From positions 300,390,001 to 300,454,000 of the forward strand of contig OZ024741.1 in NCBI GenBank assembly GCA_964016885.1: a DNA stretch of 64,000 nucleotides, written 5' to 3'. Below, one piece after another: positions 4,501-54,010 of the stretch. How positions within the stretch are numbered: the stretch's first letter is position 1; each line of letters opens with the position of its first letter. Under the pieces are notes generated by a model that had not been told where the DNA came from, did no database searches, and worked only from the letters and a program-made list of their open reading frames with translations. The position numbers and the translations under genes were made by a program. The DNA is from Eledone cirrhosa (lineage: Eukaryota).

Positions 4501-4942
4501 CATCTAAGATCCCGTTCCAGTCGCCCACTAACACTAAAGAGCGGGACGTTCCAAGAAAGGTCTCGAGACGCCGGAAGAAATCAGGCCGCCCTGATCCTGT
4601 CGGGGCATAGACGGCCACTAACCTGAAAGATTGCCCGTCTCCGCTGGTCACGTCCAGCACCAGCAACTTACCTTCTGGGTCCAGGAAGATGGCCCGTATG
4701 GCAAGATCCAAACCTCTCCGAAAAAGCACAGCAACTCCTCCCCCCGATCCCGGACGGCTGGGAGATGCGTACACATCGTAGCCGCCGAAGATCGGTGCGA
4801 AGGCCCGTGCTTCGGAGATTGTGGTCTCGCTGATGGCCACTACATCTATGTTTAGTGACCTGAGGTCGTTGAGCAGGTGGCCCTGCTTCCATGACGACCC
4901 CAAGCCACGCGCATTTATGCTGCCTATTCTGAGTGAGGTCAT
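1524..4942 (-). pseudogene. Tx1 ORF2 (APE-RT-zinc finger), disrupted
   Basis: Near-identical to the intact 43648-47067 ORF. It has a premature TAA at 2957, a frameshift near 2935, and a compensated +1/-1 pair near 3425-3485. Confidence 0.9.
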
Positions 4943-4974
4943 GTTGAAAAGGAGTGGAAAAGATGGGAAAGTCC

Positions 4975-6984
4975 ACTTGCCTTACTTCTCGTAGGGGAAG
5001 GCCGGTTTTTCCATCCTTTTCACTGCTTGTGGCCTCCTCGGGAAGGATGTCCTTATAAATCCTCCTGGAGAGTGCTTGTCGGAAGTCTCCAATGTCTTTG
5101 GGGAATTTTTGTTTTAGTGTCATGTACGTTTTCTGTGTGATGCGAGAGATTTGTATGTGTGGAGGTGGTGTGAATTTTTGGGTTGTTGTGTAGTCTTTTT
5201 CTGTGATGCTGGTGTTGTGTTGGATGTAGTGTAATAATTGCTTGTTGTTCAAATTTAATGCTCTGTAGTGTGTATCGTTTTGGTTATTTTGTTTTGTTTG
5301 CGTCTGTTGTGGGTTAGTTTCTGTTTCGCATTTTGGTGACTTTTGTGGTGTAGGTGATGGTGGTGTTGGGGTTAATGATGGTGATGGTGTTGGTGTTTGG
5401 GTTGATGGGGTTGGTGATGCTGGTGTGGATGGTGGCATATATGTCCTAACTTTTATGTTTGTTAATTTATTTGTTTCCCTCTGTATTTTGTTTTTGGAGG
5501 CGGAAAGAAGAGAATTTTTTCTTTTTTGGTTTCTTTTTTTTTCCTGATACCGTTTCCCACCCCTCGTCGTCACAATCTGTCTCCAGTTGTGATAGGCCGG
5601 GGAGTGGAAAATCCTCCACAGGCGTTAGTTTTGGTTGTGGCGTGGTGGATGGTGTAGGCGCTGGTGCTAGTTCTGAAGCGTTGGGTGGTGGTGGTGTTGG
5701 TTTTGCTGGTGGTGGTGGTGTTGGTTTTGCTACTGTTGCTGGGGTTGTTGCTGTTATAGTTGCTTCTGTTGTTTCTGCTACAGTTGTTGCTGCCATCTCT
5801 GCTACTGGTGGTGTTGATGGCTGTGTCACTGGGGTTGGTAGGAGAGGTGGCTTCAACCTTTTAGCCTGAGGGCAGAAAGCCCTTAGGTGGGTTCCTTCAC
5901 CACAAACAACACACCTAGGCCTTCTGCCCTCGACAATTACGGTGAGGTGGCTGCCGTCAGTGAGGTCTATTACCTCTGGGATCTCCTCAATTTTTTGGGT
6001 CCGCTTCGATCAGGAACTCCATCCCAGATCCGGACCAGTTCTCCTGCTTTTCTTTTGCTATTGCTATTATCTTTGTGTTTGCTTCGATGCCGGCGAGGAC
6101 GGCCGCTATTAGCCAGGGAATTTCGATGGCCGGTGGAACGTGGGTCACCCTGATCTTTACGAGTCTCTGGCCACAATAGCTTGGGACGAGTGTGAAATCG
6201 TCACTTCTTAATGGGGCCATGGAGTGTTCTCTAGCCTCCTCTGGTGTTTCAAAGAACACGTCCACGGTTCCATACTTCTGCCCACGTCTGATGTGGATTT
6301 TTCATGCCCACACATGTCCCAAAGCTTTTTGGATTTGGGACTCGGATGCCCGTTCCACTCGGCGCGAGTTTACATTTATTGTTCGATACGACACGGTGCA
6401 TGGGCGCCGATGCTCCATTTTATTAGGTGGGGGGTGAGGCTGACCCTGTACCCATCTTTCTTTACCATTTGTTTGGCATTTTCTAATTCCTCCTGAGTTA
6501 CCGTAAAAGCTTCGCACTGTTTTGCTACTCTGGCAAAACTCAGGGTGGTTTTAAATGTCATTATTGTTGTTGTTGCTATCGTTATTTTTTTATTATTAAT
6601 TTTAGTTTCAGTTGTGGTGGTGGTGACGTCAGTGAAGTTCGGTTTGGGAGAGTCCATTTTGGTTGAAAATATTTCGACATCACGAGTTGAACTATTTTTT
6701 CCCTTTGTTTCTGTTGTCGCGGTGGTGGTGGGTGTGGTAGTTGTCGTGGTGTTGGTGGGGGTGGTGGTTGTCGCGGTGGTGGTGGTGGTGGTGCCGGCTT
6801 TAACACCTGCAGTCATTGGTAATGGCGGGAAATGAATGTCTGCCTGAGACAAATTTAAAATATTGCTAGTGCTTAAATTGTTTTTGTTGGCAGATGTATA
6901 ATCATTTACAATGGTGGTGTCGGTGTGAGGTGTTAATTTGTGAGAAAGGCTTTCAGCTGCTTGGTGCAGTGGTGAATTAGCCAT
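4975..6984 (-). pseudogene. Tx1 ORF1 (low-complexity N-terminus, conserved core, CCHC knuckle CVVCGEGTHLRAFC), frameshifted
   Basis: ORF pieces 6376-6984, 6302-6517, 5987-6265, 5467-5856 and 4668-5573 are collinear with the copy B ORF1. Confidence 0.8.
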
Positions 6985-7193
6985 TTTTTTTCAAATAAAT
7001 TTTTTGATAATCATAAAAGTTTAAATTTTGGGCACAAGGCCCCAATCTTTTTGGGTGTCCTTTTCGGAAAACCATGTTTGTGCACTTATATATAGTTAAC
7101 AATAAAAATTTTCCATAAATGGCAATTTTTAACAAACGGAAATAACAAACCTTTGCGGAGCTCACGATGATACGATTTACTACGTAGGTCGCC

Positions 7194-12001: not shown

Positions 12002-13795
12002 CTTTGCTCACTTTAAAAAATATCTTCAAGCGCAGGCATTGCACGATAGAATTAATTAATAATTATTAATAATGGTATATCATGTATGTATGTTTTCTCT
12101 TTCTCTTAATTTCGAGTATATTTTTTTGACCGGCCACCTTCCTGGTGGCAAGGTTGTAAAAGAAAAGAAATTGTCATCCCTTGAATCGCAAGAATGTTTT
12201 GCAAATTTTGAAGGTGCCAGCTATCGCAGCCATTTGTAGACTATGAATTAGGGAGCTGCGTTTTTTGTCCGCAAATCCAAGTTCAGTCAAACTTTGGTCC
12301 AAGCGGGTTGGTATATAACCCGTAGCACCAATACTGATGGGTATGAAGCTAAAGGTGTATATTGGATACTGGATTTGTAAACTCCTCATCAATGGTCCGT
12401 AGATGTCCTCCTTCTCCTGTATTATTCTGACAACGTTTACATCAAGTGGGCAGCTGATTTCCACAACAGAACACGTTTTCAATGTGTGGTCCCAAACTAC
12501 AATATCAGGCCGGTTGTGCTTTAATTTGGTGGCAGTTTTTATTTTCAGGTTCCACCAGTATTCCTTAGTGCCATCTGTCTCAATATATTCTTCCTCGTTT
12601 GTTGTTAATTTTGTTTTCCGAAGTGCGTTCCAGATGGTTCTAGCTATCCCATCGTGTCTCATGGGGAGGTAGTAGCGAGATGACATTCTTTCGCAGCTGG
12701 CAACAATGTGGCTTACATCCTCGATCTTTGTTTTACATAGCCTACATTTATTGTCAGCTGCTGGCCCTCCTCTTTTGTGCAGCAGATATTTGGTAGGGAG
12801 TTCTTGTTCCTGTATTGCATATAGATATCCCTCAAGGTGTGATGTCATAAACTTGTCGGAACTCCATGCCAGGCTTTTTGAGTGGTTTATTCCCTCTATG
12901 GTCTGTGTTTTACGCCTCAAGTATCCATGCACAACTTTTTCTGTAAATTGGTCAATTTTTTTATTTTGTTTGAACATTGAATAGGATCTTCCGATTTCTC
13001 TGGGTGAGAGATTTATATCAGGCTTTATTCCATATCTCTCCTCCAGATCAGTCGCTATTCTAATGATATTTCTTTTTTCATGCTCATAAACCTGGGAAAG
13101 ATGGTTGCCAACCTTTTTCCTCTGTTGAAGGTGTTGCTTCAGTGTTACTATCCGGGTCTCATATGTTGTTAATATTGATTTTAGACCCCGGCCACCTTCC
13201 TTGCGTGAGAAGTATAGCCTATCCACATCACCATTGATGTTAAAGTTCCCAGTAACACTGAGAAGTTTTCGAGTTCTAACATCCATCTCACTTAGTTTTT
13301 GCAATGACTAGTTCAGTAGGCCAAATGTTGGCGTTAGAATTGGCACAGCATAAGTATTGTGGGCAATGTATTTGGTGTATGCTGACAGTTCTGATGACCA
13401 TATTTTCTTTACTCTTCTGAGGTATTCAGTTCTGGTTCTCTCCTTATTTATGGGTCCATCATATCTGACATTCTCATCCTGTCCAAGATATCTGTAGTTG
13501 TCACCTGACTGCAGAGGTTGTATTGTCAGACCGTTCATCTCTAGATTTCTAGAGGAGGGCACAGCTCTTCCACGTTTTACTGCCAAATATGCACACTTGG
13601 ACTCACCAAATTTCATTTTGATGTCGGTTGAAAATTGTGTAATGAGGTCCAATTGTTTCTTGATGTCATTGATATTTGGCCCATACAACTTCAGGTCATC
13701 AACAAAGAAAAGATGGGAGATGCTTCTGGGCCCACTTCTTTGTCCACCTTCTTTCCTGAGTAGGTAAGATAGTGGATTCAGTGAGAGAACGAAGA
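12002..13795 (-). mobile_element. RLE retrotransposon, family 4, 5'-truncated, flanked on both sides by (ATGT)n
   Basis: HLFFVDDLKLY, YRYLG, AIQEQ, CRLC..IEDVSHIVASC, RHD and RPDIV..VEISCP motifs; one premature TAG at 13308-13310. Confidence 0.9.
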
Positions 13796-13919
13796 TGTAT
13801 GTATGTATGTATGTATGTATGTATGTATGTATGTATGTATGTATGTATGTATGTATGTACAGTATGGATGTATGTATGTATGTGCGTGTGTGTGTGTATG
13901 TGTCTGTGGAGTCTAACTC

Positions 13920-14523
13920 TACGCTCTATCAGTGTTTTATACGGTATGAAATGTCCCATACACTCGTTCATTGGCCACTTTTAGCATGCGAATGGCGGCA
14001 ACACCCAATCTTTGTTCTCGATGCTTCAATGTTAAGCAGCCATACTGTAAAACACAGGTAGCAGTTGCTTGAAAGAGGGTCCTTTCCATTTTGTCTGGAG
14101 GTCTAGACTTCAACATCAGAGATAACTACAGATGGTACTTCAAGCCTTATCAATGCGTGTATTTACATCACATTTGCAGCTAGAAATTTTGCTATCCAAA
14201 TAACTAAATTCTTCAACACAGTTGAGAAGGGTGCCGGATAAGGTTTTGATTATTCCATTTCGATTTAAGCTTATGTATTTTGTTTTGTCTGAGTTAACAA
14301 GGAAACTAATGCCTTTGGCTAAATGTTCAAGGCAATGGAGAAGGGCTTGGCTTATTAGATCTGCGTGTAGTACTAAATCATCAGCATATCTGCATCTGTG
14401 ATTTTTGTGTTAGGATATCTATTACGTCTTAGTGAATGTAGTGTGAATCCATTGTCTTTCATAGTATCGACAGACATTCTGAGAACCTACTCCAAGCAGA
14501 TGATGAAGATATAGATTGCTAAA
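13920..14523 (-). pseudogene. Decayed RTE-clade LINE RT fragment
   Basis: Manual minus-strand translation gives LAIYIFIICLE*VLRMSVD..GFTL..RNRYPNTKITDAD.ADDL..LVNSDKTK..VEEFSYL, typical of RTE RT domains 4-7. Confidence 0.65.
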
Positions 14524-26340: not shown

Positions 26341-28603
26341 ATTACATAACGGTAATCCTTGGAATTACCTAGGATAACAAAAGGTGTCCAATATAAGTTA
26401 TATACACAGTAATACAATTGAAAGCGTTATAGATATAATTATATTCGTAAAACTACTAACCACTCGCAGATAAAAGAGCAGCCACCATGTGTACTCCGTT
26501 TCCATCTATTTCAAATTGACTTAATACTAATCATTATTCGTGAAAAGACAATATGAATCTCGGTTGTCGGGGCAGGTGTAAAAATTCTGGTTATGATAAA
26601 GTTATTTGTATCTTTCAAAGCTACATTTAAAAATCAGCTAATCTGTTACAAGTTCCACATCATCACCTTCACAAATATGTTTGTGTTTTACATAAATATT
26701 ATTAGCTATTAGCTCATCATTTGGTATACAAAATACTGCGAGAGTCATTGCTCTGCGAGGCGTCTACGCCCTTCCTTACACACTCCGTTTAACTCGCCGT
26801 ACATGCGTTCAATTTTCTTAATAGAAACACTTTCTTTAGCTTTGAAATTCCATTTCTACCGGCAGTTTAACACCACTGTTCATTGTACATCTCCCACGCC
26901 TCGTCGAAAACAACGCAATTTTGCTACTGATTATGGGCGAATTTGAGGACGATATTATAGAATTTTGGGACCTAGTGTGAGATATTATCTTCTGTTACCC
27001 TTAGAATACCATAAATGTGTCGGATTAACAGTGCTTCAGTATTTATTCCTGTTCTGTAACTTCTCAGGCGCATTTTTCGAAATCTGTAAATAAATTACTC
27101 ATTCAGTACTGATGTAAATTGTTCCCCACTTTCTCTCCTCTTCTCTGGAAGAAATTGCTTATTTACTGTACTAGAGAGGGGATGTTCTGTGCTGGTTTTA
27201 GAATGCCCACATTACACATTGTTTCAAGACGGCGCTCAAACGATTCGATCAGAATTTAAGAGCTCACTTATATTTTTCTTCTCTTTAATCATCAGAATAC
27301 AAAACCGTACAATATTAGCTCGAAAAGATTATATGGCCAACTGAATTATTGCTGGTTTTTTTTCTTTTTCTTTTGGTATTCCCTTCCACACAAATATAGA
27401 TGTAACTACTAGTGTGCGCCACCAGTTTTAGCCTTTTTTTACAATTTGGCCTAAACACAACTCTAAATTACTACTTAGTTTTCCCTAGGTGATTATTACT
27501 TGCATATCTAATGTGTACATAAGAGAGAATGAGTATTTGGTAGTATCTCTAGAATTAGTATCTCTCTATGTGACAGCGACGAAAAATGACCCACGGAAAA
27601 TAATAATTACTACTTCAAAGCAAATATACTAAACTCAACGCGACGCCATCGGAGAAAAATAGACCCTTGTTACCCCTTCCCTCAACATGTTACAGAATAT
27701 GCCATCAGTTATATATCAATATCATTACTAAATTTTTTCTTCCTACATAACCTATTGTATTGAGCCCTACATTAAAGCACCAATGAGTGTGTAGATGTAT
27801 TATGCCACCAAACGGCTTACGACTTTGTTTTGCGAAAACTAAACTTCTGGTTATAGAGAGATCTGTGACAACACCCACCATTTCAGGATTTCGTATGGAG
27901 TGCTGGCAAATATGCAATTTGAATAGTGCCATAACTGCGCCAAATAATTTGTACACAACTGAGATATTCATGCCCAGCAGCTGTCAATAATCGTTGTTTC
28001 AGTGAGACAAATCATATTTTGTCATTTGTCCACTCTTTTCACCATTTAGCAGGAGGCGAGTGTGTGTATGTGTGCACATGTATAAGTAAGTGTGGGTTCG
28101 TGTTTGTGTGTGAATGTGCATCAATAAGTATGTGTATGTCTGTATGTGTACATTATTCTACGTTTATTTTTTGTTAGGTTGTCTTGATTTTGATGCCCAA
28201 AGCATTATTCTAATCGTTAAATAAATTAATACAATATCTGTCAAAAAAGTAATTATTTCTTGCTTTTGAACCCGTATCTGGCTCAACGTAATTAATGTTT
28301 TTGTTGGTTTCTGTGTTTTTTGCATTTAATTCATATTTTTGTGTCTAATAATTTTACTATAAATGTATACAATATGAAATCATATAAAAATATAGAAAAT
28401 TAGCATGTGTGGAGATATATTCAAGTTGTTCTCGAAGGAAAGCATAAGAATTAATTTCCAAATGAAAAAGTTATTTTTTCATTTCCTGCCCTCCTTCTCA
28501 TCCTCATCTTCATCTTCTTCTTCTTCTTATTATTATTATTAGTATTTTTATTATTATTATTATTATTAGTATTTTTATTATTATTATTATTATTAGTATT
28601 ATT

Positions 28604-31600
28604 CCTTGAATCTCAGTCATTGATGTTGGTTAACTGGAAAGTCCGTTGGAATGAATATCAAGCCACTACCTGCAGCCTCAGATATTCAGGACGTATCGGA
28701 GGGTTCTTGCTGTTCCCAGCAAGCATGCCTTTTGAAGCGTTCCAAAAAGCGTGAAGGGGCCGATTTTCTTTAACCATCCCTGGAAACTTTTGGAGATAGT
28801 CCCTAGTGCGCCTATGACAATCGGGATCACTTTGAGTTCATGGCAGTTCCAAATCCTTTTCACCTCCCACTTTAGGTCCTGGTATCGGTTAATTTTCTCC
28901 CTCTCCTTCTCTTGCACTCTCGTGTCGAAAGGGCAGGCTACATCCACAATCAGGCACGATCTTTTTTCTTTGTCCACAACCACCAGGTCAGGTCTATTGT
29001 GTTCCAGTTTCTTGTCCGTCTGTATCCTAAAATCCCACAGCACCTTCACCTGATTGTTCTCCATCACCGCCTCTGGCCTATGCTCATACCATTTCTCAGA
29101 ATGTGGTAGATTGTTTACTTTGCACAGGTGCCAGTGGATCACCCTGCCCATCACATCGTGTCTCCAGCCCTTATAGTGGGTCTGGGCTAGGTGTTTACAC
29201 TCGGACACAATGTGAGCCACAGTCTCCTCTCTCTCTCCACAGATCCTGCACAGTGGGCTAGCCTCCTCCTTGTAGATATGGTGCTTCAACCACTTCGTTT
29301 TGAGGGCCTGCTCCTGCGCAGCCATTAGCATTCCTTCTGTAGCCTTTTTGAGGTCTCCTCTTCTCAACCAGTTCCATGTCTGTGGATCTCTAAATTCAGT
29401 TTTCTCAAAGAAGGTACTATGAAGGGGTTTTCCCTTAAGGCTGCTCTTCCTCCTTGATGTTATTTCTTCCCTGGACATCCCCTGGCCTACTGTCCCCTCC
29501 TTCAGTACAGTTCTGAGCATTGGCTCCTTACTATAGGTCACGTATTTGTATAGGTTGTTTTTCTCCATCTGAACACAGTCCTCTATGCTGATAAGACCTC
29601 TTCCACCCTCAGATCTCCTTAGGTAGAGTCTATCGACATCACTCCTCTTGTGGAACATGTTGTAGATAGTCAATAGCTTCCTAGTCTTCCTATCCATTTC
29701 TTTCTGTTCAGCAACATTCCATCTCAGAATTCCCGCACTGTACCTAATAATAGACACAGCTCGGGAATTTACTGCGCTTATGGCATTTCTGCTGTTCAGA
29801 TGTGACTTCAATACGCTCCTTACTCTCCGAATGTATTCAGTTCTTAACAATTCCTTCATTTTTTTGTTCTTTATGCCATCAGCCTCCAGAACGCCCAAAT
29901 ACTTGTATCCTTCCTCAGAGTCAATTTCCTTTATCATCTCACCTGTTGGTATCTGGATCCCGTTACTTCTGCTCAACCTACCCCTCTTCATCACAATGAC
30001 TCCACATTTACAAATACCAAACTGCATACATATATCACTGCTGAAAATACGGACAGTGTCAACAAGCACATCCAACTCCTTCTCACTTTTCCCGAAGAGC
30101 TTAAGATCGTCCATGAAGAGGAGGTGATTGATGGTAAGCTCTCCCCTTCTCAACTTGTATCCTGCTCTCACTTTTCGCAGCATAATGGTCAAGGGCATCA
30201 GGGCAAGGACAAACAACAGAGGGGACAGGCTATCTCCCTGGAAGATACCTCTCTTGATCTTCACGCTTCCCAAGGATACTCCAGTTGATGTCAACTCTGT
30301 CTCCCAGGACCCCATACTCCTGCCTAGCAACTGTCTGATGTTATCTGCCACCCTGAAGATCTCCAGGCTTTTGGTGATCCAGGAATGAGGCACCATGTCA
30401 AATGCCTTTCTGTAGTCTATCCATCCCATGGCAAGATCAGTGTGTCTCCTCCTGCAATTCCCCATTACCATCTTATCAATAAGCAACTGGTCCTTTGTAC
30501 CACGTGACTTCTTCGGCATCCTTTCTGTTCGTCCGGTAACAAGTTGTTTGTGTGGAGGTGATGGTAGATTTCCTCAGACACAATGCTCGTCAACAGTTTC
30601 CACATTACGGGCAGACATGTGATAGGTCTATAGTTGGTAGCATCATTACCCTTGATTCGGTCTTTCATTATCAGAACTGTGGTACCTTTTGTCAACCACT
30701 CTGGCACCTCACCCGACACCAAGCAGTCATTGAACATGGCCGTCAGCTTCGGGTGGAGGGATGTTAAATGTTTAATCCAATACCCCTGCACACCATCTGG
30801 GCCTGGTGATTTCCAGTTGGTTAGTTTTTTGGCTTGCCCCTTAAGAGTTTCAACTGTGATACTCAAATCAGTCTGTTGCTGTGCCTGCTCACCGATCTCC
30901 CTCTGTACTGTCTCAATCCACCCTGCCTGGGCATTGTGTCTAACATCCTGCTCCCATATTCCTCTCCAGAATGTTTTAGTTTGCTCCGCCCCAGGGATCA
31001 AGTCGTTGCCTCTTTCTTTGCCCTCAAGCTGTCCAAACAGCATCTTCTAGTTGTTGTCGAACATGCGGTTCTGTTTATACTGACTGACTCTGTTCTCGTA
31101 TCGCCTGATTTTTGCACTCTTTGCTACAATGCGTTGCTTCAATTCCTCTATGATAATATTTAGCTTTTTACTCCTAGTTTTGTATTTTATTTCCAGTCTA
31201 TTTTTAGTGCCTATGTTTTTTAGTGTCCCATTCAGTAGTGACTCAAGCTTTCCTATGTCATTTCTCATTTCCCCGATTTGCCCACTCAGTCGCCTCTTCC
31301 ACCACGGCTCTGCTCTTTCTTGTCTGTTGTTTCCTCTCGCTTTTATACCAAGTAGTTTCCTCACCGTATTTGCTGTTGCTCTGAGGATATTGTTGCACTG
31401 GTGAAGGCTCCTCGCCTCAAGGTATGGGATGACTTTGTTTACCTTAGCTGTTGTTTCTTTTAACTTTTTCCTGTCTACAAATCTTAGGTTCATAGGTCTC
31501 CCACTATCATTGTTCAATTCATCTACCACTAAATTTAGGATGTCAACCGAATCTTGTCCTAGCCCGTCAGCATTCATCCCCTCAGTGGCCGTATCTCTGT

Positions 31601-33141
31601 TCCAGGTATTATTTATCTCAGTACTCAGATCATTGTCTGCTTCGGGTGGTTCCTCCGTTCTCAGGACCTCCTCACCTTCATTTCCCACCGGCTCGCTTGT
31701 CTGGCATACTACACCCGCCATCTCCAAGCCATTCTCTCTGCTCAGTTCCTCCAGTTCCAGCTCGCTTATCCACCCATTAGTTCTTATTACCCGAGCCTGC
31801 CCGGCCAATTTTTGTTCATCTAATTTAAATAAACCAATCTCGTTCCAGATGTTATGCATCCGTCTCCTGTAGCCCCTCTCCTTGGGGTTACTTTTCAGGT
31901 AGCATTGCATAACAGTTCTATTCAATTCTTTCGTCCAGTTGGTTCTGGCCCCTTTCCTTCTTCTCCTTCCTCCAACATCAGCAGTATTTGGTTGACAGTC
32001 AGGTTCCTGCTGCTGAGCCAGGGGGCACCTGTTGGGTGAGAGTCTGTCACATGACGTTCTAGTCTCCATTTCACCGTTATTCGAACTGTTTATGTTCGAT
32101 ATTTAAACACTCTTATCGAGGATTGGCGAATGTATATTTACATAGCCATCTGTGGATCCGCCATCCCACTTGGCCCTTGTGTGGCATTATCACCACGATG
32201 TATACGAACACACATAAACAAACAAACACACAGGCAGAAAGGGCCCCAAAAATGAATAAGCATAAGTTTCATTGTAATGTAGTGTTCGAATGTCTGACTT
32301 AGTTTTATTTTTTAAGTTTTACTTTTTCCCCCCTCTTCTCTGTCCGTCCGCCTGCTTCTCTCTTCATTCTTATTTTCTTTACGTTTTTGGGGTTTCTTTT
32401 TTTTGTTTTTGTTTTTCTCTGTTTGTTTTTCTCGTTTTTTGCTGTTGTTGCTGTGCTGCTTTAGTTTTGTTGTTTGTTTTTTCTTTTTTCTTTTGGGTCT
32501 ATCTATATATTTTGATGCCTTCCTCTTTGTTAGTAGTAGGAATTCTATAATGTGGAAATAGCAGCCAGCAGGGAAGTGGGAGACTGGCGGCGCCAGCGAT
32601 ACTGAGACAGTGGTGGTGGTGATGTCGATACCGAGGCAGCGGTGGCGGTGATGTGACCGTATTACTGTAGTGATGGTGCTGTAGCGGAGTCAAGGGGTGG
32701 CGGCGGCGGTGATGGGATAGTGGTGGCAATGATGGCCGTAGTGAGCGGTGGCGGTGAAGGTGAAAATGTGTCGTTATCTGGCTGTTGTGTTTAGTGTACA
32801 CAGATGATGGGGTGGGTGGTGTATCTAGTTTCTGGTGTTGGTGAGTTTAGCTGTCCTATATAGTGTAGCCAGAGGAGAGGAGGGGAGGGGTTCTTCTTCC
32901 ATTTATAGCCATTTTTTTTTTTTTTTTTTGGATATACAGTGTACAATACAAAGTTGAATATTTGAATATTTGAGCCTTATAACAATATATTTTGGGTCCG
33001 AATTTTTTGGGGCTCAAGCCGGGTGCTTTACGTAGCATTTGTACTAAGAGTTGTTATTTCACAAATGGTTTAAATATGTTAAAAATTCAAAACTTACGGG
33101 AGCGATTTCATGACCTCCGTCACCTCGTGCGTCTTCTTCCC
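28604..33141 (-). mobile_element. R4/Dong-type RLE retrotransposon, family 1, full-length copy 1 with a ~1-kb 5' extension
   Basis: Flanked by (TAA)n on the sense strand. The single ORF has an N-terminal W..ELN..VMQCY..GYRRRM..W domain, RT, CCHC and RLE. Confidence 0.93.
28678..32069 (-). pseudogene. RLE family 1 ORF (about 1130 aa when reconstructed): RT, zinc finger and PD-(D/E)xK endonuclease
   Basis: KSPGPDG, NYRPITCL, IDYRKAFD, GIFQGDSLSPLLF, FMDDLK and YKYLG motifs. There is a stop at 31047 and a 1-nt deletion near 30510 relative to copy 4. Confidence 0.9.
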
Positions 33142-33212
<71 letters not shown>

Positions 33213-33219
33213 GTTATTA

Positions 33220-36200: not shown

Positions 36201-38103
36201 GTGGTTCCTCCGTTCTCTCGACCTCTTCACCTTCATTTCCCACTGGCTCGTTTGCCTGGAATACTCCACCCTCCATCTCCAAGATAATCTCTCTGCCCAG
36301 TTCCTCCAGTTCCAACTCGCTTATCCACCCATTAGTTCTTATTACCCGAGCCTTCCCGGCCAGTTTTTGTTCATCTAATTTAAATGGACCAATCTCGTTC
36401 CAGATGTTATGCATCCTTTTCCTATAGCCTTTCTCCTTGGGGTTACTCTTCAGGTAACATTGCATAACAGTTCTATTCAATTCTTTCGTCCAGTTGGTTC
36501 CCGGTCCCTTTCCTTCTTCTTATTCTTCCGACACCAGCAGTATTTGGTTGAGAGCCAGGTCCCTGCTGCTGAGCCAGGGAGCACCTGTTGGGTGAGAGTC
36601 TGTCACATGACATTCTAGTCTCCATTTCACCGTTATTCGAACTGTTTAGGTTCGACATTCAAACACTCTTATCGAGGATTGGCGAATGTATGGTTACATA
36701 ACCACCGGTGAATTACTTGTCTCTGGTGGTTTCGTCACTCCACGTGACTTTTGTGTGGCATTATCACGCTGTAGACGAACCCAAACAAACAAACAAACAG
36801 GCAGAAAAAACCCCAAAATTGAATAAGCATAAGTTTCATTGTAATGTATTGTTTGAATGTCTGACTTAGTTTTTCCCTTCCCTTCTCTGTCCGTCCGTTT
36901 CTTTTTCTCTTCATTTTTATTTCCTTTACGTTTTTTTTGTTGTTGCTGTGCTGCTTTGATTTTGATTTTTGTTGTTTTTTTTATTTGATTTTGACCGGGT
37001 CATCAATTCAGTCTATTTATATATTTTGATGTTTTCCTCTTTTAGTGGGAATTCTACAATGTAGCAGCGGATAGCGGGAGAGAATAGCGGCGGTAGTGAT
37101 ACTGAGGCAGCGGCAGCGGGGTGGAGGGTGGCGGTGCTGTGCCAGCAGCAACTAGCAGGAGGTAGTGGGAGGGAATAGCGGCGGTAGCGATAGTGAGGAA
37201 GCGGTGGTGGTGATGTGGTCGTATTACTTTGTTAAAACTAAAACTTGATTTTGATTATTGTTTTTTTATTTGTTTTTTTTTTGATCGGGTCATCAATTCA
37301 GTCTATTTATATATTTCGATGTTTTCCTCTTTTAGTGAGAATTCTACAATGTAGCAGGGGGTAGCGGGAGAGAATAGCGGCGGTAGTGATATTGAGGTAG
37401 CGGCGGCGATGGCGGTGCTGTGCTAGCAGCAACTAGCAGGAGGTAGTGGGAGAGAATAGCGGCGGTAGCGATAGTGAGGCAGCGGTGGTGGTGATGTGGT
37501 CGTAGTACTGTAGTGATGGTGTTGAAGTTGGAGTAGAAATTTGAGTCGACTTGACCAGAGTTTTCATCGTGGTAGTGGTGTTGGAATTGGTGGTGAAATG
37601 ATCTTTAGTGAAATTATCGTTAGTCGCGTGTATGTGTTGACATTTATTGGAATTAAACATTTTGTTAAAACTAAAACTTGAGGCAATAGTAATAGTAATT
37701 ATTATTATTATGTTGAGATTGGTGGTGGTGGTGGTGGTGAAATTGCCGTTATCGGGCTGTTGTGTTTAGTGTACACAGAGGGGTGATGGGGTAGGTGGTG
37801 TATCTAGTTTCTGATGTTGGTTAAATTGCTGTTATTTGGCTGTTCTATATAGTGTAGACAGAGGGGGTTTCCTTCCATTTATAACCATTTTCTTTTTGAA
37901 TATAAAATGTATAATACAAAATTGAATATTTGAGCGATATAACAATATATTGTGGATCCGAATTTTTTGGGACTCAAGCTGGATGTTTTATGCAACATTT
38001 GTACTAAGAATTGTTATTTCACAATTGATTTAAATATGTTAAAAAATCAAAACTTTCGGGAGCGATTTCTCGACCTTCTATCCACCATCTGTGTCTTCTT
38101 CCC
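33220..38103 (-). mobile_element. RLE family 1, full-length degenerate copy 2 with 5' extension
   Basis: Collinear with copy 1 including the extension; many stops and frameshifts; (TAA)n flanks. Confidence 0.9.
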
Positions 38104-38114
38104 TTATTCTTCCC

Positions 38115-41272: not shown

Positions 41273-41514
41273 TTATTATTGTTATTATTATTATTATTAT
41301 TGAATGCCATGGTTGACGGAGGCTCGGCTCTGTAAGGTATAGTAATTTTTAACCGTTAAAACAATTGTAAATTGTTTAAAACTTGAACCAAATTGTTGAT
41401 AAAGACACCCTCCTCCTCGTGAGAGGGGTCTTTCTGTCCGTTATTTGGCCCTTCGGGGTTAAATAACCAGTTATTGGGGTTTTGTACCCAAAATTTCATT
41501 TTAAACAAAAAAAC

Positions 41515-43612
41515 ATGGCTACCAAAAAGAAATTTCATACGTCACTCCCACTCATTCCGTCTTCTTCTTCCTCAATCATCACTACAGCAGAGAGAAGATT
41601 GTCTCTCTCCCTCCCTTCTTTAAATGTGTCTCTCTCCCTCCCTTCTCTTTCGCAAGCGACGAAAGAAAAGAAAAGTCTCGTGCAAAGCGTGCAAGGTTTC
41701 TCCACGACGACGACGACAGCGACGAAACAGGTGTGCGGGAAATACGAAAACCCAGTTCATTCGTCTGACGTCAGGAATAATAGCAGTAGCAGCCGTAATA
41801 ACAACAGCAACAGTGACAATGAAAACAACAGTAGCAGCCGCAACAGCATCACCAGCAGCATAAACAACAACAGCATTAGCAGCAGCAACACCAACAACAA
41901 CCACAGCAACAGCGGCGGAGGCAGTAGTCGTAGTACCTGCAGCAACAACAAAAGTACCAGCAGCTCTGACGACAACAACAACAGCAGAGAAAAACCAATC
42001 TCATTTGCAGGTATTGCGAAAAACCTGGAAACAATCCTCATAACAAATGAGGAATTAGAGGAAGCGAAGAAGATGGTGACAAAGAACGGACACCGAGCAA
42101 TCTGCAAGGCAGCGAAAAATTTTTTCGAAACCCAAGAGCACTGTACGGTCACGTACCGTACAGTAAGTACAAAATCCCGTAGGGTGGAAAGAGCCACAGA
42201 GGCCCAAATACAAAAAGCCTTGGGGTCTGTGTGGCAGAGGAAAACGCACATCACCCGAGGCAAAAAAATACGCCACCGTAGACGTACTTTTTGCCACACC
42301 CCAGGAGGCAAAGGCCCAATCAGTAGTGACCCTAAGGAGCGAGGAAATGGTGTTGGTGCCCTCCTACTGCGGGCAAAAAATTGTGAGGGTCAAACTGACC
42401 CACGTCCCTCCCGGAATGACCCCTTCTTGGCTGGCCGCGTCTGTCCTCGTCGGAATCGAGGACAAAACAACTGTACTGCAAGTACAGAAAAAAGTAAGAG
42501 AAGATTGGGTCGGCTCCTCCATTGAGATGCTAATCCAAACCAACCAGGAGTGCATCGAAGCTATCCCGGATGTGATAGACTTCGATAACGGCACTCAACT
42601 GCCCATAAGTGTTGAGGGCAAACGCCCGAAATGCTTTCGCTGTGGATCGAAGACTCACCTCAGGGCCTTCTGCAACGAGAAGACCATGAGAAAGGAGAAA
42701 ACCCCCCTCCTCCCGAATCCGGTTCCACGGCTACCAGCAACAGGACAAGCGGCAACCAGGAATGATAGGTCCGTGGCACCCATACCCACTCCACGGAAAT
42801 CAAAGACAGCAGCAGCAGTGGAAATATTAACAACAACAACAGCAATACCAAATGCAGCTGCAACAGAGACTCCAGTGCAAACATCACCAACAACAACAAG
42901 TGAAAGAGTGGAGCTGGTACCCCTCCCCGACCTTACAGAATCAGACATGGAGTGTGAGGTGGGAGAGGGATGGCAAAAGGTCTCAAGAAGGCACAAACGC
43001 AGAAGCAGCGCATCGTCGCCTTTGAAAAGGGAGGAAAGAAATGAGAAAAGGGTAAAGTCTACTGCAAAGAGACCCACAGCAGCAACACCACCAACACCAT
43101 CACCACCCACACCAGCACCACCATCACCACCGGCAACAACCCCACCGCCAACAACACCTTCAACACCACCACCACAAGCACCAACATCGCAAACACAACA
43201 ACAAAACACACACACCCAGCAACAACGACAAGAAAATAGCAGAACCACACCCCACCCCCAGAAAAACAAATGCACGGCAATAAACACACACAACAAGAAA
43301 CTAATGACTTACATAATTGAACACACAGACATTTCACAACAGGACTACATAATACCAGCACCAATCAAAACGCCAACTAACATAAGACTGCTAAAAATAG
43401 CACAGAAACAATACACAAACATTAAAACGAAATTCCCCAACGCAGTTGGTGATTTCAGGGACCTAGGAGGAACCATTAATCGAAGAGTATATTCAGACAT
43501 TCTCTTAGAAGAGCCGACGACCAGCCGAAGGGACGATTCAACGGTCCCTTCACCAGACGATCAAGTGAAAAGGGATGTAAAAACCATCCCTCCTCTACCA
43601 AAAGTACGGTAA
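41515..43612 (+). pseudogene. Tx1 ORF1 with one +1 frameshift in an A7 run (42262-42268); CCHC knuckle CFRCGSKTHLRAFC
   Basis: Removing one A restores GKKYATVDVLF, which matches copy A GQKYGTVDVFF, and joins the two ORF pieces. Confidence 0.82.
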
Positions 43613-43647
43613 GTGGTCTTTCCCATCTTTTCCACTCTATTTTAAAC

Positions 43648-46600
43648 ATGACCTCACTCAGAATAGGCAGCATAAATGCGCGTGGCTTGGGGTCGTCATG
43701 GAAGCAGGGTCACCTGCTCAACGACCTCAGGTCACTAAACATAGATGTAGTGGCCATCAGCGAGACCAGAATCTCCGAAGCACGGGCCTTCGCACCGATC
43801 TTCGGCGGCTACGATGTGTACGCATCTCCCAGCCGTCCTGGATCCGGTGGAGGAATTGCTGTGCTTTTTCGGAGAGGTTTGGATCTCGCCATACGGGCCA
43901 TCTTCCTGGACCCAGAGGGTAAGCTGGTGGTGCTGGACGTGACCAGCAGAGACGGGCAAGCTTTCAGGCTAGTGGCCGTCTATGCCCCGACAGGAGCAGG
44001 GCGGCCTGATTTCTTCCGGCGTCTGGAGACCTTTCTTGGAACGTCCCGCTCTTTAGTGTTAGTGGGCGACTGGAACGGGATCTTAGATGCACGCTGGGAC
44101 TGTGTGGGATTAGCGGATAGGGGTGGAGGGTGCAAGAGCCTCACCAACCTGCTCAGGCGTTTTGAACTGTCTGACAGGTACCGATTGGATTTCCCGAATG
44201 TGCCAATGTGGACTTGGACAAACCGCATAGGGTCATCCAGATCATATCTAGATAGAGTATTTTGTAGGGAAATAGATAGGTCTAGCATAGGCTGTCCACA
44301 ATTCAAGATAGTCAGCTACACGGACCACAAATTCGTGACCTGTGTGCTTGACTTAGATAGGCTTCATAGACGAGGACCCGGCTACTGGAAGCTAAACGCG
44401 TCCTTACCAGCGCGCAAGGCCTACAGAGACCGGATTAGCGAACTAGTTAAGCGGGCGTTGACGGGGGCCATCGTCAACAACAAGTGGTGGTTTGCTCTGA
44501 AAAGAGCGATTAGAATAGAATCGATTAGGTTTAGTAAGGCTTTAGCAATAGAGAAAAATAGAGCAGAGGGAGAACTAGTTAGAAAATTAGACGAGGCGCT
44601 TAGCAAAGGCATTGCGACCGACGTGCTTGCGGCGAAATTGGCCCTTGACCAATTCTTCAATGCAAAGCACGAAGGCTGCGTTGTCAGAGCTAGGGTGCGT
44701 GCTCTCAGACACGAGGGGACGAAAGCCGTTCAATGGGCCCGAGTGGCGGAGGCGCGTCGTGGCAACAAAGCCACGATCCGGTCTTTGGTGGACCACGACG
44801 GGCGCATGCTACTCGATCCCGGGCAAATGTGTGAAGCTTTTCAGCGACACTTCGCTCAGCTGTTCGGGGGCAGCGGGGGGCCGGGTAGAGGGATGGACTT
44901 TAGTGTCTACCTCGACGGACTGCCGCGGCTCTCGGCCACTGAGGCGAAGTGTTGCGAAAAGCCGATAACAGCCGCTGAAGTACGGGAGGCAATGACTGGC
45001 TGCACAAGGGGTAAATCGCCTGGTTTGGATGGTCTGCCCTATGAACTTTACGTACAGATGCCAGACTTGTTCGGAGGCCTCTTGGCGGACGTCTACTGCA
45101 ACTGGCAACAGAACGGGAGAATTCCCAGTTCTGTGAGCCGAGGAGCGGTGGCACTGCTGAGAAAGGATCCGAACAAGGGGGATAACATAGACAATTTCCG
45201 GCCCATAACTCTGCTAAACACAGAGTTTAAGATTTTGGCCAAGGTGCTAGCAAAGAGGTTGGCGCTTGTCGTTGGTGGTCTGGTGGGAGAGGCGCAGACA
45301 TGCGCCATTCCCGACAGATCCATCCACGACAACCTCCACCTCATGCGATACATCGTAGAGAGGGTAGCTAGGGAACCTGGCACGGGTGGGTCCTTGATCA
45401 ATTTAGATCAGTCGAAAGCTTTCGATAGGGTCGACCATCGTTACCTAGCGGCAGTCCTGAGGGCGGCTGGCTTTGGGCCCGTCTTCAGAGGCTGGATCGC
45501 TGCCATGCACAGCGACATCTGCTCTGTGGTGAGAGTGAACGGTCACCTGTCGGAACCGTTCAACATCATGCGCTCGGTCCGCCAAGGATGTCCCCTCTCG
45601 TCCCTCTTGTACGTATTGACTCTCGAGCCATTACTGCACAAACTGGAGACGTTGAGGGGAGTCCCGCGCGAACTAGGATGCGGAAGATCCGTGTCAGCAT
45701 ATGCGGACGATGTCACTGTAGTGGTGTCGAACGCCAAACACATCGAGGCGATCGGCACTACACTAAGAGAATACGAAGCGGTGACAGGAGCAATGATCAA
45801 CCAGGAAAAGTCAGTGGGCCTGCAGCTCGGCACCTGGAGAGGCAGGTCCATGCCGTCCAACAGCGTCGTCGGGCGCTGGACGGACGGACCGGTTAAATTG
45901 CTAGGGGTCTGGTTCGGTCCGGACCTCCAGACGGACAAAAACTGGGACGAGGTGACGAGCAGGGTGGTTTCTCTCACCCAGAAATGGGCGGAGAGGAAGC
46001 TATCCCTGAAAGGTCGAGCGGAGGTGGCTAACGTGTACATCGCGTCTGTCATCTGCTACCGCCTAACCGTCGTACCTTGTCCTAAGCCTCGCCTGACTGC
46101 GCTGGAGCGTTTGCTCTTTCGCTTTTTGTGGAAGGGACGTGCTCCGATGGTCAGGCGGTCCATCTGTTGTCAACACCCGCTGCGTGGAGGGCTGGGCATG
46201 CCGTGGCTGATGATGCGCAGGCACGCGCTCAGGCTACGACATCTCCACCTCTTCCTCGACGGTGATCAGGTGTGGTCGCCGTTTGCTAGACGCGTTTTTC
46301 CCCAGCTCGTTTCCTTGACGGAGCTGCAGTCCTGGGTCAAGCGAAGACCGAGAGGGAGCGCCTGGAGACTGGAATGTCTTCAGGCGCTCACAGCCCTCGA
46401 CCAATCGGGCAATGTGATCGGTGGAAACTCCACCTCGGCGTTCTATAGAGGATTAGTGGAGGGGAAGAGCGACGACGTACTTGGGGAAACTCTAGGCGTC
46501 GACGAAAATCAACTAGCCAATCTCTTCGGAAGAACTTTCGGGCCAGGGCCTATGGACAACTTCCAGAAATCTCTGGCCTGGCAGTGCTACCGAGGAGCCT

Positions 46601-47067
46601 TGCCAGTTCGGGATAAACTCTACAGGCATGGAGGTGCCGTCAGCCGGGCATGTCCGAGATGCGCGCAGGGCGACGAAACCGTCCTGCACGCACTCGTCCA
46701 GTGTCCGAAAATTGCTGACTTGTGGGTTTATGTCGAACACCTGCTGTCGCGTTTAGGACGGATCCAGCTATCATCTGAGTCTATCGTGAGGATTGCCCCG
46801 CCCTCCTCCTTTAGCCGGGAAGGGCAGGCAGTTTTTATCTGTCTGGTGGCCATGGCGAAAGAGATAGTATGGTGGACACGTTTGAAAGGGCTGAAGACGA
46901 GCACTTACCTCTTCGGTGATGCTCTGATTGACTTTTTCAAATTTCATTTGAAAAGGAAAATCAGAGTAGAGAAGGAAGTGCTCTCTTCCCAGCATTTTGT
47001 TGAAAGATGGGTGAGAGAAGCAAGAATGGCCCGAGTGAATGGGCCGACTCTGAGTATATATCTGTAA
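43648..47067 (+). CDS. Tx1 ORF2: APE endonuclease, reverse transcriptase and C-terminal zinc finger (1139 aa, intact)
   Basis: SINARG/ISET/GDWN/YLDR/YTDH APE motifs; KSPGLDG, FRPITLLN, DQSKAFD, RQGCPLS and AYADD RT motifs; CPRC..ETVLHALVQC. Confidence 0.95.
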   Translation: MTSLRIGSINARGLGSSWKQGHLLNDLRSLNIDVVAISETRISEARAFAPIFGGYDVYASPSRPGSGGGIAVLFRRGLDLAIRAIFLDPEGKLVVLDVTSRDGQAFRLVAVYAPTGAGRPDFFRRLETFLGTSRSLVLVGDWNGILDARWDCVGLADRGGGCKSLTNLLRRFELSDRYRLDFPNVPMWTWTNRIGSSRSYLDRVFCREIDRSSIGCPQFKIVSYTDHKFVTCVLDLDRLHRRGPGYWKLNASLPARKAYRDRISELVKRALTGAIVNNKWWFALKRAIRIESIRFSKALAIEKNRAEGELVRKLDEALSKGIATDVLAAKLALDQFFNAKHEGCVVRARVRALRHEGTKAVQWARVAEARRGNKATIRSLVDHDGRMLLDPGQMCEAFQRHFAQLFGGSGGPGRGMDFSVYLDGLPRLSATEAKCCEKPITAAEVREAMTGCTRGKSPGLDGLPYELYVQMPDLFGGLLADVYCNWQQNGRIPSSVSRGAVALLRKDPNKGDNIDNFRPITLLNTEFKILAKVLAKRLALVVGGLVGEAQTCAIPDRSIHDNLHLMRYIVERVAREPGTGGSLINLDQSKAFDRVDHRYLAAVLRAAGFGPVFRGWIAAMHSDICSVVRVNGHLSEPFNIMRSVRQGCPLSSLLYVLTLEPLLHKLETLRGVPRELGCGRSVSAYADDVTVVVSNAKHIEAIGTTLREYEAVTGAMINQEKSVGLQLGTWRGRSMPSNSVVGRWTDGPVKLLGVWFGPDLQTDKNWDEVTSRVVSLTQKWAERKLSLKGRAEVANVYIASVICYRLTVVPCPKPRLTALERLLFRFLWKGRAPMVRRSICCQHPLRGGLGMPWLMMRRHALRLRHLHLFLDGDQVWSPFARRVFPQLVSLTELQSWVKRRPRGSAWRLECLQALTALDQSGNVIGGNSTSAFYRGLVEGKSDDVLGETLGVDENQLANLFGRTFGPGPMDNFQKSLAWQCYRGALPVRDKLYRHGGAVSRACPRCAQGDETVLHALVQCPKIADLWVYVEHLLSRLGRIQLSSESIVRIAPPSSFSREGQAVFICLVAMAKEIVWWTRLKGLKTSTYLFGDALIDFFKFHLKRKIRVEKEVLSSQHFVERWVREARMARVNGPTLSIYL

Positions 47068-47326
47068 ACTAAAGGTGGAAAACTGGGAGAGGGCACTTGC
47101 CTTGGTGGTCAGGGTCATTGTGGCTTTTTACTGGGCTTTCTCCACAAATGTCCCTCCGAAGTCTCCCCCCTATTGGGGAATTTTTCATTGTTATTTTCAT
47201 TGTTATTTTTGTTACATCCTCTGTTTTTGTTTTTTACACGCAGAAATGCCCATTTGTACCGTCCTGCATTGTCCTGCACTGTCCTTAATGTCTACTTTAT
47301 GTAAACCCTTGTGGTTAATAAAGAAA

Positions 47327-47382
<56 letters not shown>

Positions 47383-47384
<2 letters not shown>

Positions 47385-48727
47385 AGTTGCATTTATCTTG
47401 CTTTATGTTCATACGAGTTATCACCAAGTCACAACCAGTGACCTCAAGAGACAACAAGGTCCGCCATGTTCAAGAAAGAACATACATACTCACACATGCA
47501 TCTTTAGTGTTTAGACTTGTGATTTACTTTTAATCAGGCACGATCTTTTTTCTTTGTCCAGAACCACCAGGTCAGGTCTATTGTGTTCCAGTTTCTTGTC
47601 CGTCTGTATCCTAAAATCCCACAGCACCTTCACCTGATCGTTCTCCATCACCGCCTCTGGCCTATGCTCATACCATTTCTCAGAATGTGGTAAATTGTTT
47701 ACTTTGCACAGGTGCCAGTGGATCACCCTGCCCATCACATCATGTCTCCAGCCCTTATAGTGGGTCTGGGCTAGGTGTTTACACTCGGATACAATGTGAG
47801 CCACAGTCTCCTCTCTCTCTCCACAGATCCTGCACAGTGGGCTAGCCTCCTCCTTGTAAATATGGTGTTTCAACCACTTCGTTTTGAGGGCCTGCTACTG
47901 CACAGCCATTAACATTCCTTCTGTAGCCTTTTTGAGGTCTCCTCTTCTCAACCAGTTCCATGTCTGTGGATCTCTAAATTCAGTTTTCTCAAAGAAGGTA
48001 CTATGAAGGGATTTTCCCTGAAGGCTGCTCTTTCTCCTTGATGTTATTTCCTCCTTGGACATCCCCTGGCTTACTGTCCCCTCCTTCAGTACAGTTCTGA
48101 GCATTGGCTCCTTACTATCAGTCACGTATTTGTATAGGTTGTTTTTCTCCATCTGAACACAGTCCTCTATGCTGATAAGACCTCTTCCACCCTCAGATCT
48201 CCTTAGGTAGAGTCTATCGACATCACACCTCTTGTGGAACATGTTGTAGATAGTCAATAGCTTCCTAGTCTTCCTATTCATTTCTTTTTGTTCAGCAACA
48301 TTCCATCTCAGAGGAAGAAGAAGGAAAGGGGCCAGAACCAACGGGACGAAAGAATTGACTAGAACTGTTATGCAATGTTACCTGAAAAGTAACCCCAAGG
48401 AGAGGGGCTATAGGAGACGGATGCATAACATCTGGAACGAGATTGGTATATTTAAATTAGATGAACAAAAATTGGCCGGGCAGGCTCGGGTAATAAGAAC
48501 TAATGGGTGGATAAGCGTGCTGGAACTGGAGGAACTGAGCAGAGAGAATGGCTTGGAGATGGAGGGTGTAGTATGCCAGACAAACGAGCCAGTGGGAAAT
48601 AAAGGTGAAGAGGTCGAGAGAACGGAGGAACCACCCGAAGCAGACAATGATCTGAATACTGAGATAAATAATACCTGGAACAGAGATACGGCCACTGAGG
48701 AGATGAATGCTGACGGGCTAGGACAAC
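47383..48727. mobile_element. Chimera: family 2 3'UTR (-), family 1 internal fragment (47531-48311, -) and an inverted family 1 N-terminal fragment (48312-48727, +)
   Basis: Each part matches 52279-52415, 28950-29730 or 31555-31968 respectively. Confidence 0.85.
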
Positions 48728-52256: not shown

Positions 52257-52278
52257 ATTCGATATTATTATTATTATT

Positions 52279-54010
52279 TGCATTTATCTTGCTTTATGTT
52301 TATACGGGTTATCACCAAGTCACAACCAGTGACCTCAAGAGACAACAAGGTCCGCCATGTTCAAGAAAGAACACACATATTCACACATGCATCCTTAGTG
52401 TTTAGACTTGTGATGTACTTATATTGACAGGATCTTCCTTAGTATATGGGCAGTTCCCATTAGTACTATCTTTTGTATTTCTCCTATACGCGGGTTTCCT
52501 GGGATTTGCGATAAGTAGTCGTTAGACCCCTTAGGTATCATTCCCAGAGCGCCTACAACCACTGGTATTGTTTTAGTTCTCAATTTCCACATTTTTCCAA
52601 TTCTATCTCCAGGTCCTTATACTTGCTCAATTTTTCAAATGTTTTTATAGATACATTCTTGTCTATTGGAACAGACATATCAATTAGCAGGCATACCCTC
52701 CTTTGAAAGTCCTTCAATATTATATCAGGTCTATTTGCATCTATTTTTCGGTCTGTTTGGATGCTAAAGTTCCACAAGATTGAGATGTGATCTTTTTCAA
52801 GTATGGGAGGTGGTTGATGCTCCCACCAATTCTTTTGATGGGGCAGGTCAAAATGCTTGCACATTATCCAATGTATGTATTGTGCAGCTCTGTCATGCCT
52901 GTTTAGGTATTCGGTTGGAGCTATAGGACTGCACATTGAAATTATATGGTCAATGGTCTCTGGTTGTTTTTTACATACACGGCATAATGGGCTGCACCCA
53001 TTTTTTATTATGTTGGCTTGGTAATTTTTTGTTGGCAGACACTGATCTTGTGCGGATATAATCAGTCCTTCAGTCTCCGATTTCAGTCCAGAGGATGCCA
53101 ACCACTGATGGGTTAAAGTTTTGTCAACATCAGGATTGTTAGCTCGCTCTGGGTATTTTCCATACAGAGGCTTTTCTTGCCATTTCTTACCCAGTTTCTG
53201 TAGCAGTTCTTTCTTTGCAGTTACTTTTACCTGCTTTGCTTTTTCTGTGTTTTCCATTTCAGCAGTAAATGGGACTTCTGAAATTTGTAGTCCATTACTG
53301 TATCTTTGTGCATCTTTTGTAATGGAATATGATCTTTTGGTGCTTTCGTGTTTCAAAACGAGTTTGATCATCCAATCATGTGATTCCCTTAGATATGTGG
53401 ATAATCCAATTGTTGCAGTTTTCAACGCAATGTCTAACTGGATTAACCCACGTCCCCCTTCTTTCCTAGGGAGATATATTCTATCTATGTCTGCCTTAGG
53501 GTGATGCATTCTGTGCATGGTTAAGAATTTTCGGATTTTTGTATCGAGCCTACGGATCTCTGTGCTTGACCAGTTGATGACATTGTAACTGTAGGTTACT
53601 ACTGGTATGGCAAGCGTGTTTATGGCATCGATCCTATTCCTTGCATTCAATTCCGTTCTTAAGATTGCTCTGACTCTGCGGTAACATTCCTTCCTTATCC
53701 TTTCCCTCATTGTCGAGTGCTTGATTCCGTCTCCTTCACAAACACCTAGATATTTGTAAGTTTGTTCTTGATCAAGCTCTCTTATCACGTTCCCCCGATC
53801 AAGATTAATGTCTGAACTGTTCAGCAGCTTTCCTCTGGTGAACGTTGCTTTGGCGCATTTATCCAGTCCAAACTCCATTTTAATGTCATCACTGAACTGC
53901 TTCACAGTGGATAATAGCCCTTGCAATTGTTCATCATTTTTTGCAAATAGTTTCAGGTCATCCATGTAGAACAGGTGATTAATGGTTTTGTCATAGACTC
54001 TATATCCATA
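52279..54010 (-). mobile_element. RLE family 2, 5'-truncated
   Basis: HLFYMDDLKLF, YKYLG, AQDQ, CRVC..H..C, RHD and RPDI..IDMSVP motifs; frameshift near 52595; (TAA)n flanks. Confidence 0.92.

Follow-up and report, generated by a model that had tools for sequence, protein, structure and literature searches.

Retrotransposons of the R4/Dong clade, Bombyx Dong among them, carry one ORF with a Myb/SANT-like N-terminus, a reverse transcriptase (RT) and a restriction-like endonuclease (RLE) and insert into (TAA)n (PMC7998251), and Bombyx Dong self-cleaves at its 5' end via an HDV-like ribozyme (PMC3774820). For Octopus vulgaris, Dong-R4 and L1-Tx1 are both given as recently active (PMC13282606), and the microsatellite-targeting Tx1 families Kibi and Koshi combine two ORFs with APE-RT (PMC4494074). 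In mammalian L1, similar 5' UTRs recur across non-monophyletic families, 11 replacements have been described in mouse and the UTRs contain tandem repeats (PMC3600994). Chimeras across the RLE/APE divide are represented by the R2/R1 hybrid SIDEs at a common target locus, and foreign 5' ends are also added when R2 jumps templates in vivo, to tRNA or U12 RNA (PMC3414825). Further background is found in PMC4640811, PMC4494074 and PMC5786205.

The window, the whole stretch of 64,000 nt analysed here, belongs to the 3.0 Gb genome of Eledone cirrhosa and contains retrotransposons nested in TAA/TTA arrays. One of them shares with Bombyx Dong the single ORF with RT and restriction-like endonuclease and the (TAA)n target (PMC7998251), and has a putative Myb/SANT-like region at its N-terminus. 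Bombyx Dong has its 5' ribozyme (PMC3774820); here, searches detected no canonical ribozyme, and the ancestral UTR is preceded by a module of 0.9-1.7 kb. As in mammalian L1, 5' UTR recruitment, UTR sharing between non-monophyletic families and tandem repeats are encountered; unlike in L1, where the donors described are other L1 families or unknown, the probable donor is an APE-type Tx1 element and the acceptor an RLE element, and exchange appears to have taken place between families at 36-41% amino acid identity (PMC3600994). Whereas SIDEs are non-autonomous and place an R2 ribozyme 5' on an R1 3' end, the elements described here have intact ORFs and a 5' part that probably stems from an APE element (PMC3414825). 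The Tx1 elements of this genome likewise resemble Kibi and Koshi in their two ORFs, APE-RT and microsatellite target but differ in that this target is TAA/TTA (PMC4494074); the label Tx1 is a provisional one that was taken over from the first-pass annotation and fits the domain order.

The RT in the single ORF of copy 1 is matched by Pfam RVT_1, CCHC, RHD and PD..D..K endonuclease motifs are present at the C-terminus, and the best PDB matches of the element protein are R2 proteins. The N-terminal region, with a W-x-N motif, was spotted by eye and can be aligned with relatives, no Pfam match being obtained there. Intact ORFs of 1141 aa and 1216 aa exist among the element copies, and at one locus (L227) the intact 1141-aa ORF has the leader upstream. 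(TAA)n precedes 29 of 30 extension loci, and 3' (TAA)n arrays are present as well. Domain motifs, R2-like PDB matches and target fit R4/Dong, an assignment made from motifs and target. The element is a young, high-copy R4/Dong-type retrotransposon inserting in (TAA)n. Its parts and its neighbours are compiled in Table 1. Also present in the window are pieces of another RLE-type element, the third and a more distant one, in which RT and zinc-binding domains were matched (12174-13925, minus strand). At 47532-48726, the 3' end of a family 2 element harbours a family 1 fragment that is rearranged and partly inverted.

Table 1. Dong-type and Tx1-type features of the window (positions within the window).
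Feature	Position	Strand	Remark
(TAA)n target array	33142..33219	-	directly 5' of copy 1; same context at 29/30 loci
Copy 1, RLE element	28580-33141	-	1042-nt extension (32100..33141) begins right after array 33142-33219
Putatively Tx1-derived leader, likely internal promoter	32913..33141	-	profile and pairwise comparison with Tx1 A/E/F
Conserved block of leader with GTAAGT donor-like site	33092-33103	-	
Second block of leader	32950-32974	-	A-run then precedes ATG
Upstream ORF, 18 codons	32856..32912	-	opened by ATG aligning with Tx1 ORF1 start
Low-complexity body, ACC-rich then A-rich	32300..32855	-	in part common to family 2
Conserved stretch, ends in pyrimidine tract	32196..32299	-	copy 1
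Ancestral Dong 5' UTR remnant (3' part)	32100..32195	-	old form aligns with 5' UTRs of relatives
Copy 1 ORF (single), split over three frames	28678..32102	-	putative Myb/SANT-like N-terminal region, RT, CCHC knuckle, RHD, PD..D..K endonuclease
3' UTR of copy 1 and 3' (TAA)n	28527..28677	-	
Same module on copy 2	36660..38104	-	older subfamily, internal duplications
Dong family 2 copy, 5'-truncated	52264..54010	-	full-length copies elsewhere bear the same module
Tx1 copy B (APE-RT)	41302..47330	+	leader a more distant relative of the module
Tx1 copy A leader	6971..7193	-	among the closest sampled leader types

A search with the first 402 nt of the extension yielded 1681 candidates; 40 were scored, and 30 loci, among them the window itself, were fetched. 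All 30 run into the start of the RLE ORF, their 5' ends agree to within 2 nt, and in 10 of the 30 a tandem duplication affects positions 149-771 of the extension. The reverse search from the ORF start (30 loci fetched of 40 scored, 8 of them overlapping with the extension-based set) retrieved the extension upstream, whole or 5'-truncated, at 30 of 30 loci, and the linkage to RLE ORFs in many copies foreseen by the first-pass annotation was thereby observed from both sides. Among 101 module copies, a count that includes overlapping loci, 93 reach an RLE ORF (73 of family 1, 20 of family 2), 8 have no ORF start in reach, and none was seen to lead into Tx1 ORF1; for the old variant, 28 of 30 fetched loci lead to the family 1 ORF. 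Tx1 leaders stand after (TTA)n in 131 of 131 cases, in contrast to the (TAA)n before 29 of 30 extension loci, which is the placement expected if Dong inserts the module and which bears out the RLE polarity noted earlier. A shared extension of 1-1.4 kb without TAA spacer had also been described; this holds for copy 1, while that of copy 2 (~1.44 kb) contains a short internal TAA run. Since copies 1 and 2 show 88.5% identity across the ORF region (79% over 498 nt of leader and body) and fall in different subfamilies, a tandem segmental duplication is excluded. In this R4/Dong-type retrotransposon, the extension constitutes the 5' UTR.

For comparison, Tx1 leaders were gathered upstream of Tx1 ORF1 cores in 1.3 Mb of fetched DNA. 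Pairwise, the window leader reached z values of 4-5 against Tx1 A and B, as did A against B, and its local alignment with Tx1 copy B scored 49 against a shuffle mean of 27, with 0 of 300 shuffles reaching 49. The first-pass annotation had derived the leader from this parallel with copy B, and the motifs it quoted are indeed found in both; the B match is nevertheless mostly fortuitous. The match of TGACGGAGG to copy B is confined to the youngest subfamily and absent from the old one, and CCCAAAAT, which was paired with copy B, does not fall where the two leaders align, homology residing in a block ~20 nt further on.

Profiles of the module and of the Tx1 leaders matched each other reciprocally and end to end (E=0.0016 and 0.0015; reversed decoys <6 bits). 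When the ATG end was dropped, young copies fell to 7-9 bits and an older variant stood out; a search with it as query yielded 1298 candidates, the 30 loci fetched being 91-100% identical to it. Against these old copies, a Tx1 profile of all families without the ATG end gave E=2e-7. A profile made from the leaders of Tx1 families A/E/F only, with module and ATG end both excluded, matched the old form at E=7e-12 (44.8 bits), as compared with at most 4.9 bits for reversed decoys and 15.3 bits for true Tx1 B leaders, these two sets being the controls. The alignment is collinear and nearly gap-free across ~190 nt. The next-best scores, 26.2 bits and 12.5 bits, went to a decayed leader of Tx1-like type at window 56893-57012 and to a palindrome matched in reverse, respectively. 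With B left out, all 30 old copies scored at least 15 bits (median 33), comparable to held-out A, E and F leaders (4-31 bits), and B, C and D leaders stayed below 7 bits in the leave-out profile test; omission of A, E or F lowered the old-copy median to 4.0, 3.6 and 9.3 bits, respectively, the score being sensitive to which leaders train the profile.

Copy 1 of the window scored 6.0 bits against the A/E/F profile (E=5.4). The compared leaders are AT-rich and ~50% identical: the old form shares 47-53% with the Tx1 A/E/F leaders and the young and window copies 40-46% (copy 1: 40-45%), while the A/E/F leaders are 45-56% identical among families. The window copies in turn are 65-68% identical to the old form (copy 1: 65-66%). 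On profile evidence, the first ~215 nt of the extension are homologous to Tx1 A/E/F leaders, which are the closest ones sampled, copy B being a more distant relative; by the same measure the window copy has drifted and is tied to Tx1 solely via the old form. The proposal that a single-ORF RLE element captured a leader thus gains support for a Tx1-type leader through the old subfamily, with families A/E/F rather than B as its nearest relatives. Copy B was rejected as donor, the A/E/F profile fitting the old module far better than the B leaders. A donor search for the leader after (TTA)n returned 15 matches at 9 loci, none leading to Tx1 ORF1 (8 lead to the family 1 ORF and 1 is cut by the locus edge), and a pattern search at the ATG returned 11 loci, with Tx1 sequence after the module in none; no Tx1 family with exactly this leader was found in these 9 and 11 loci. 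As separate observations, a palindrome is conserved ~50-70 nt before the ATG in Tx1 A/E/F leaders, with one arm kept in the Dong module, and a decayed Tx1-type leader with a low-complexity ORF1 start lies at window 56850-57400 (plus strand).

The Tx1-type element itself has two ORFs with APE and RT. Its copies A (window 1200-7193) and B (41302-47330) are 94% identical in ORF2, with unalignable leaders and divergent ORF1s, and at least 7 Tx1 leader types exist in the genome; on this basis, Tx1 itself appears to swap 5' modules. Tx1 and Dong neighbours are mostly arranged head to head (80 of 95 junction records, duplicates included). Two same-strand fusions of Tx1 ORF2 to Dong without TAA spacer were encountered, one of them single-copy (L191:199-4037) and the other at L157:2260-2702, both with fusion points near Tx1 position 4900-5040; the 5' end of the L191 fusion is interrupted by another insertion, which makes its origin unreadable.

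Behind the leader, the aligned ATG opens an upstream ORF whose commonest length is 18 codons in families 1 and 2 and 27 in the old form, and the SFA block and core of Tx1 ORF1 are absent after the module, where this uORF of 18-27 codons stands instead. The Thr/Pro-rich and Lys-rich tracts of the extension body had been likened to Tx1 ORF1. Position and composition would suit such a relic, but in comparisons with 7 Tx1 ORF1 regions (nhmmer, tblastx) the matches were no better than those of reversed decoys, and the relic is not supported beyond low complexity. GTAAGT is present at +45 in most copies (113 counted), and in 110 of 113 copies of family 1 the ancestral UTR is immediately preceded by a pyrimidine tract with an acceptor-like CAG, the remaining 3, window copy 1 included, having CAT instead. 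A search for the spliced junction in genomic copies gave 0 matches. From the donor-like and acceptor-like sites, a splice-based role is possible.

The ancestral 5' end was approached through 80 related metagenome loci, of which 28 with long ORFs were examined; at their contig starts, the Tx1 and module leader profiles found a match in 0 of 28. The 5' end of the relative L273, which adjoins (TAA)n without a gap, is formed by an RNA motif present in L259, L260 and L268 as well. The same motif recurs complete in family 2 at +950, right behind the module, with scores of 87-96 for L259, L260 and L273 (0/200 shuffles). Four of its helices hold across 7 sequences with both-sided changes in 6 pairs; a fifth drawn helix, 26% paired, was dropped. 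The old form of family 1 keeps just the 3' part, which scores 53-58 against the 5' UTRs of L259, L260 and L268 (0/200 shuffles), and RNAalifold detected covariation in 3 of 37 pairs of the ORF-proximal region of family 1. The module stands upstream of the ancestral Dong UTR. Neither Rfam nor a descriptor, the latter of unproven sensitivity and negative in the 28 relatives too, detected an HDV-like ribozyme. Family 2 5' ends fall at the ancestral motif at 5 loci and at a control site at 5 loci; this lack of excess fits no cleavage now and does not thereby show earlier cleavage. As Bombyx Dong self-cleaves at its 5' end (PMC3774820), the L273-type motif, unclassed by Rfam, may be a processing element.

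Two further kinds of 5' end were noticed among the relatives. Right after (TAA)n, L261, L263, L264, L267, L269, L274, L277, L280 and L291 carry a second conserved 5'-terminal RNA motif, a candidate self-cleaving RNA, which shares a hairpin core with that of L273 type and may form a loop pseudoknot; no Rfam family was obtained for the 8 scanned of those 9 loci. tRNA-like heads are seen on the metagenome Dong relatives L307 (84-168), L278 and L288, with a tRNA-Gly called by ARAGORN in L307 (1 of 3 loci) and A- and B-box patterns in L278 and L307. These heads possibly represent parallel Pol III promoter capture, or adjacent SINEs.

Family 2 was traced upstream from the truncated element (52264-54010) at 20 of 40 scored loci; 4 of the 20 reached the 5' end, all 4 with the same module. 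The family 1 and family 2 ORFs show their 36-41% identity over long alignments and 49% in the RT core, and the deepest split of a quick, provisional protein tree separates the two families, while their modules are 74-77% identical at the nucleotide level. In a module tree of 20 non-redundant copies, the family labels interleave: starred branches enforce 3 of the 4 changes needed, and none of 200 bootstrap trees gets by with a single label change. The label of L185 is based on an odd offset, yet L185 is nested in a family 2 group. This interleaving points to repeated exchange, with several transfers of the module between the two distantly related Dong families as the likely history. Three label changes could also stand for one gain with later replacements, and the order of changes is left unfixed by a tree that lacks a true root. 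Fixed in the 5' UTR of family 2 is a fragment (L147:3700-3770) that matches the 3' end of another repeat, which we take to be SINE-like.

Taken together, we give a probability of roughly 70% to the reading that the extension is a Dong 5' UTR whose first ~215 nt were captured from Tx1, serve as internal promoter and passed between Dong families several times. A Dong ancestor would have gained the Tx1 leader either by an RT template jump onto a short Tx1 5' RNA, as R2 template jumps are known in vivo (PMC3414825), or by recombination with a genomic Tx1 copy, routes that are likely because both elements crowd the same TAA arrays. The single-copy fusion of Tx1 to Dong on one strand at L191 speaks for this account. 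The direction from Tx1 to Dong is suggested by the 28 relatives without the leader and by L273, which starts with the motif found at +950 in family 2. The leader would then act as internal promoter and be copied along with every full-length insertion, and the likely gain for Dong would be that it no longer relies on read-through transcription. The scenario requires that self-cleavage ceased at the old 5' end, as the promoter would otherwise be cut off each new copy, and later swaps between Dong families would have followed the same routes as the first capture.

The competing explanations differ in which part of this account they replace. Convergence, in which Dong and Tx1 leaders came independently to share a host core-promoter layout (motifs at +40 and -50 with an AT-rich spacer between them, then A-run and ATG), is unlikely, even though it has the strongest claim among the rivals: identity is just ~50% in AT-rich DNA, the score of the young copy comes largely from the A-run and ATG end, and the donor searches did not turn up the exact donor family. 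Nearly gap-free collinearity over ~190 nt is difficult to reconcile with it, the old module matches the A/E/F profile far better than do true Tx1 leaders of types B, C and D, and similarity to Tx1 drops with time, being higher in old than in young copies, where convergence would have it rise. Slightly less probable still is that a Tx1-derived piece was captured without being a promoter and was kept as U1 site, as uATG-removing intron, for RNA stability or as passenger while read-through transcription continues. The promoter role is a prediction from sequence, and the prevalent GTAAGT at +45, together with the pyrimidine tract and CAG in 110 of 113 family 1 copies, would suit this alternative; the genomic copies, however, contain no spliced junction, and a 5'-end position kept exactly over three subfamily ages and spread to family 2 is hard to explain for a passenger.

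Improbable, in our view, is a third source, a host gene or other element, that gave the leader to both, or a transfer from Dong to Tx1. The mosaic UTR of family 2, with its fragment of another repeat's 3' end, demonstrates that sequences of several origins are taken up, but in Tx1 the leader runs up to the start of a working ORF1 and has split into several families, whereas the same ATG in Dong opens just 18-27 codons, and Dong relatives are without the leader (0/28). An independent Tx1 insertion or local duplication adjoining a Dong copy, finally, could draw on the frequent, mostly head-to-head adjacency of Tx1 and Dong copies; it is refuted by an identical junction and 5' end at dozens of unlinked loci with Dong polarity, in line with what the first-pass annotation had argued.

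Capture of a Tx1 leader followed by exchange between Dong families hence remains our preferred reading. A wider version, for which we see the chances as evenly balanced, holds that an RLE lineage left read-through and ribozyme processing for its own Pol II promoter, taken from a microsatellite-sharing APE-type LINE, and that the cassette moved repeatedly between deeply diverged Dong families and fed their expansion. Our literature search found no description of the module or of an autonomous Dong with Tx1 leader; subscription papers, Repbase/Dfam and supplementary repeat libraries lay outside this search and may hold one. The accessible portions of the octopus repeat papers PMC13282606, PMC8967140 and PMC9115989 name Dong, the first two also Tx1, and describe no such UTR. 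While 5' UTR recruitment as such is already known, the case presented here would be one of cross-clade leader capture by autonomous elements.

In practical terms, repeat libraries may misassign such 5' ends. rDNA-targeting R2 uses a host promoter, and microsatellite-targeting RLE elements are without one; the leader described here bears on how the latter get transcribed. The genome offers a dated series of old, middle and young module, two recipient families and several donor-type leaders, which makes promoter capture across the RLE/APE divide directly testable. Recruitment of 5' UTRs, described in L1 for swaps inside one clade, would also cover autonomous elements belonging to different clades.
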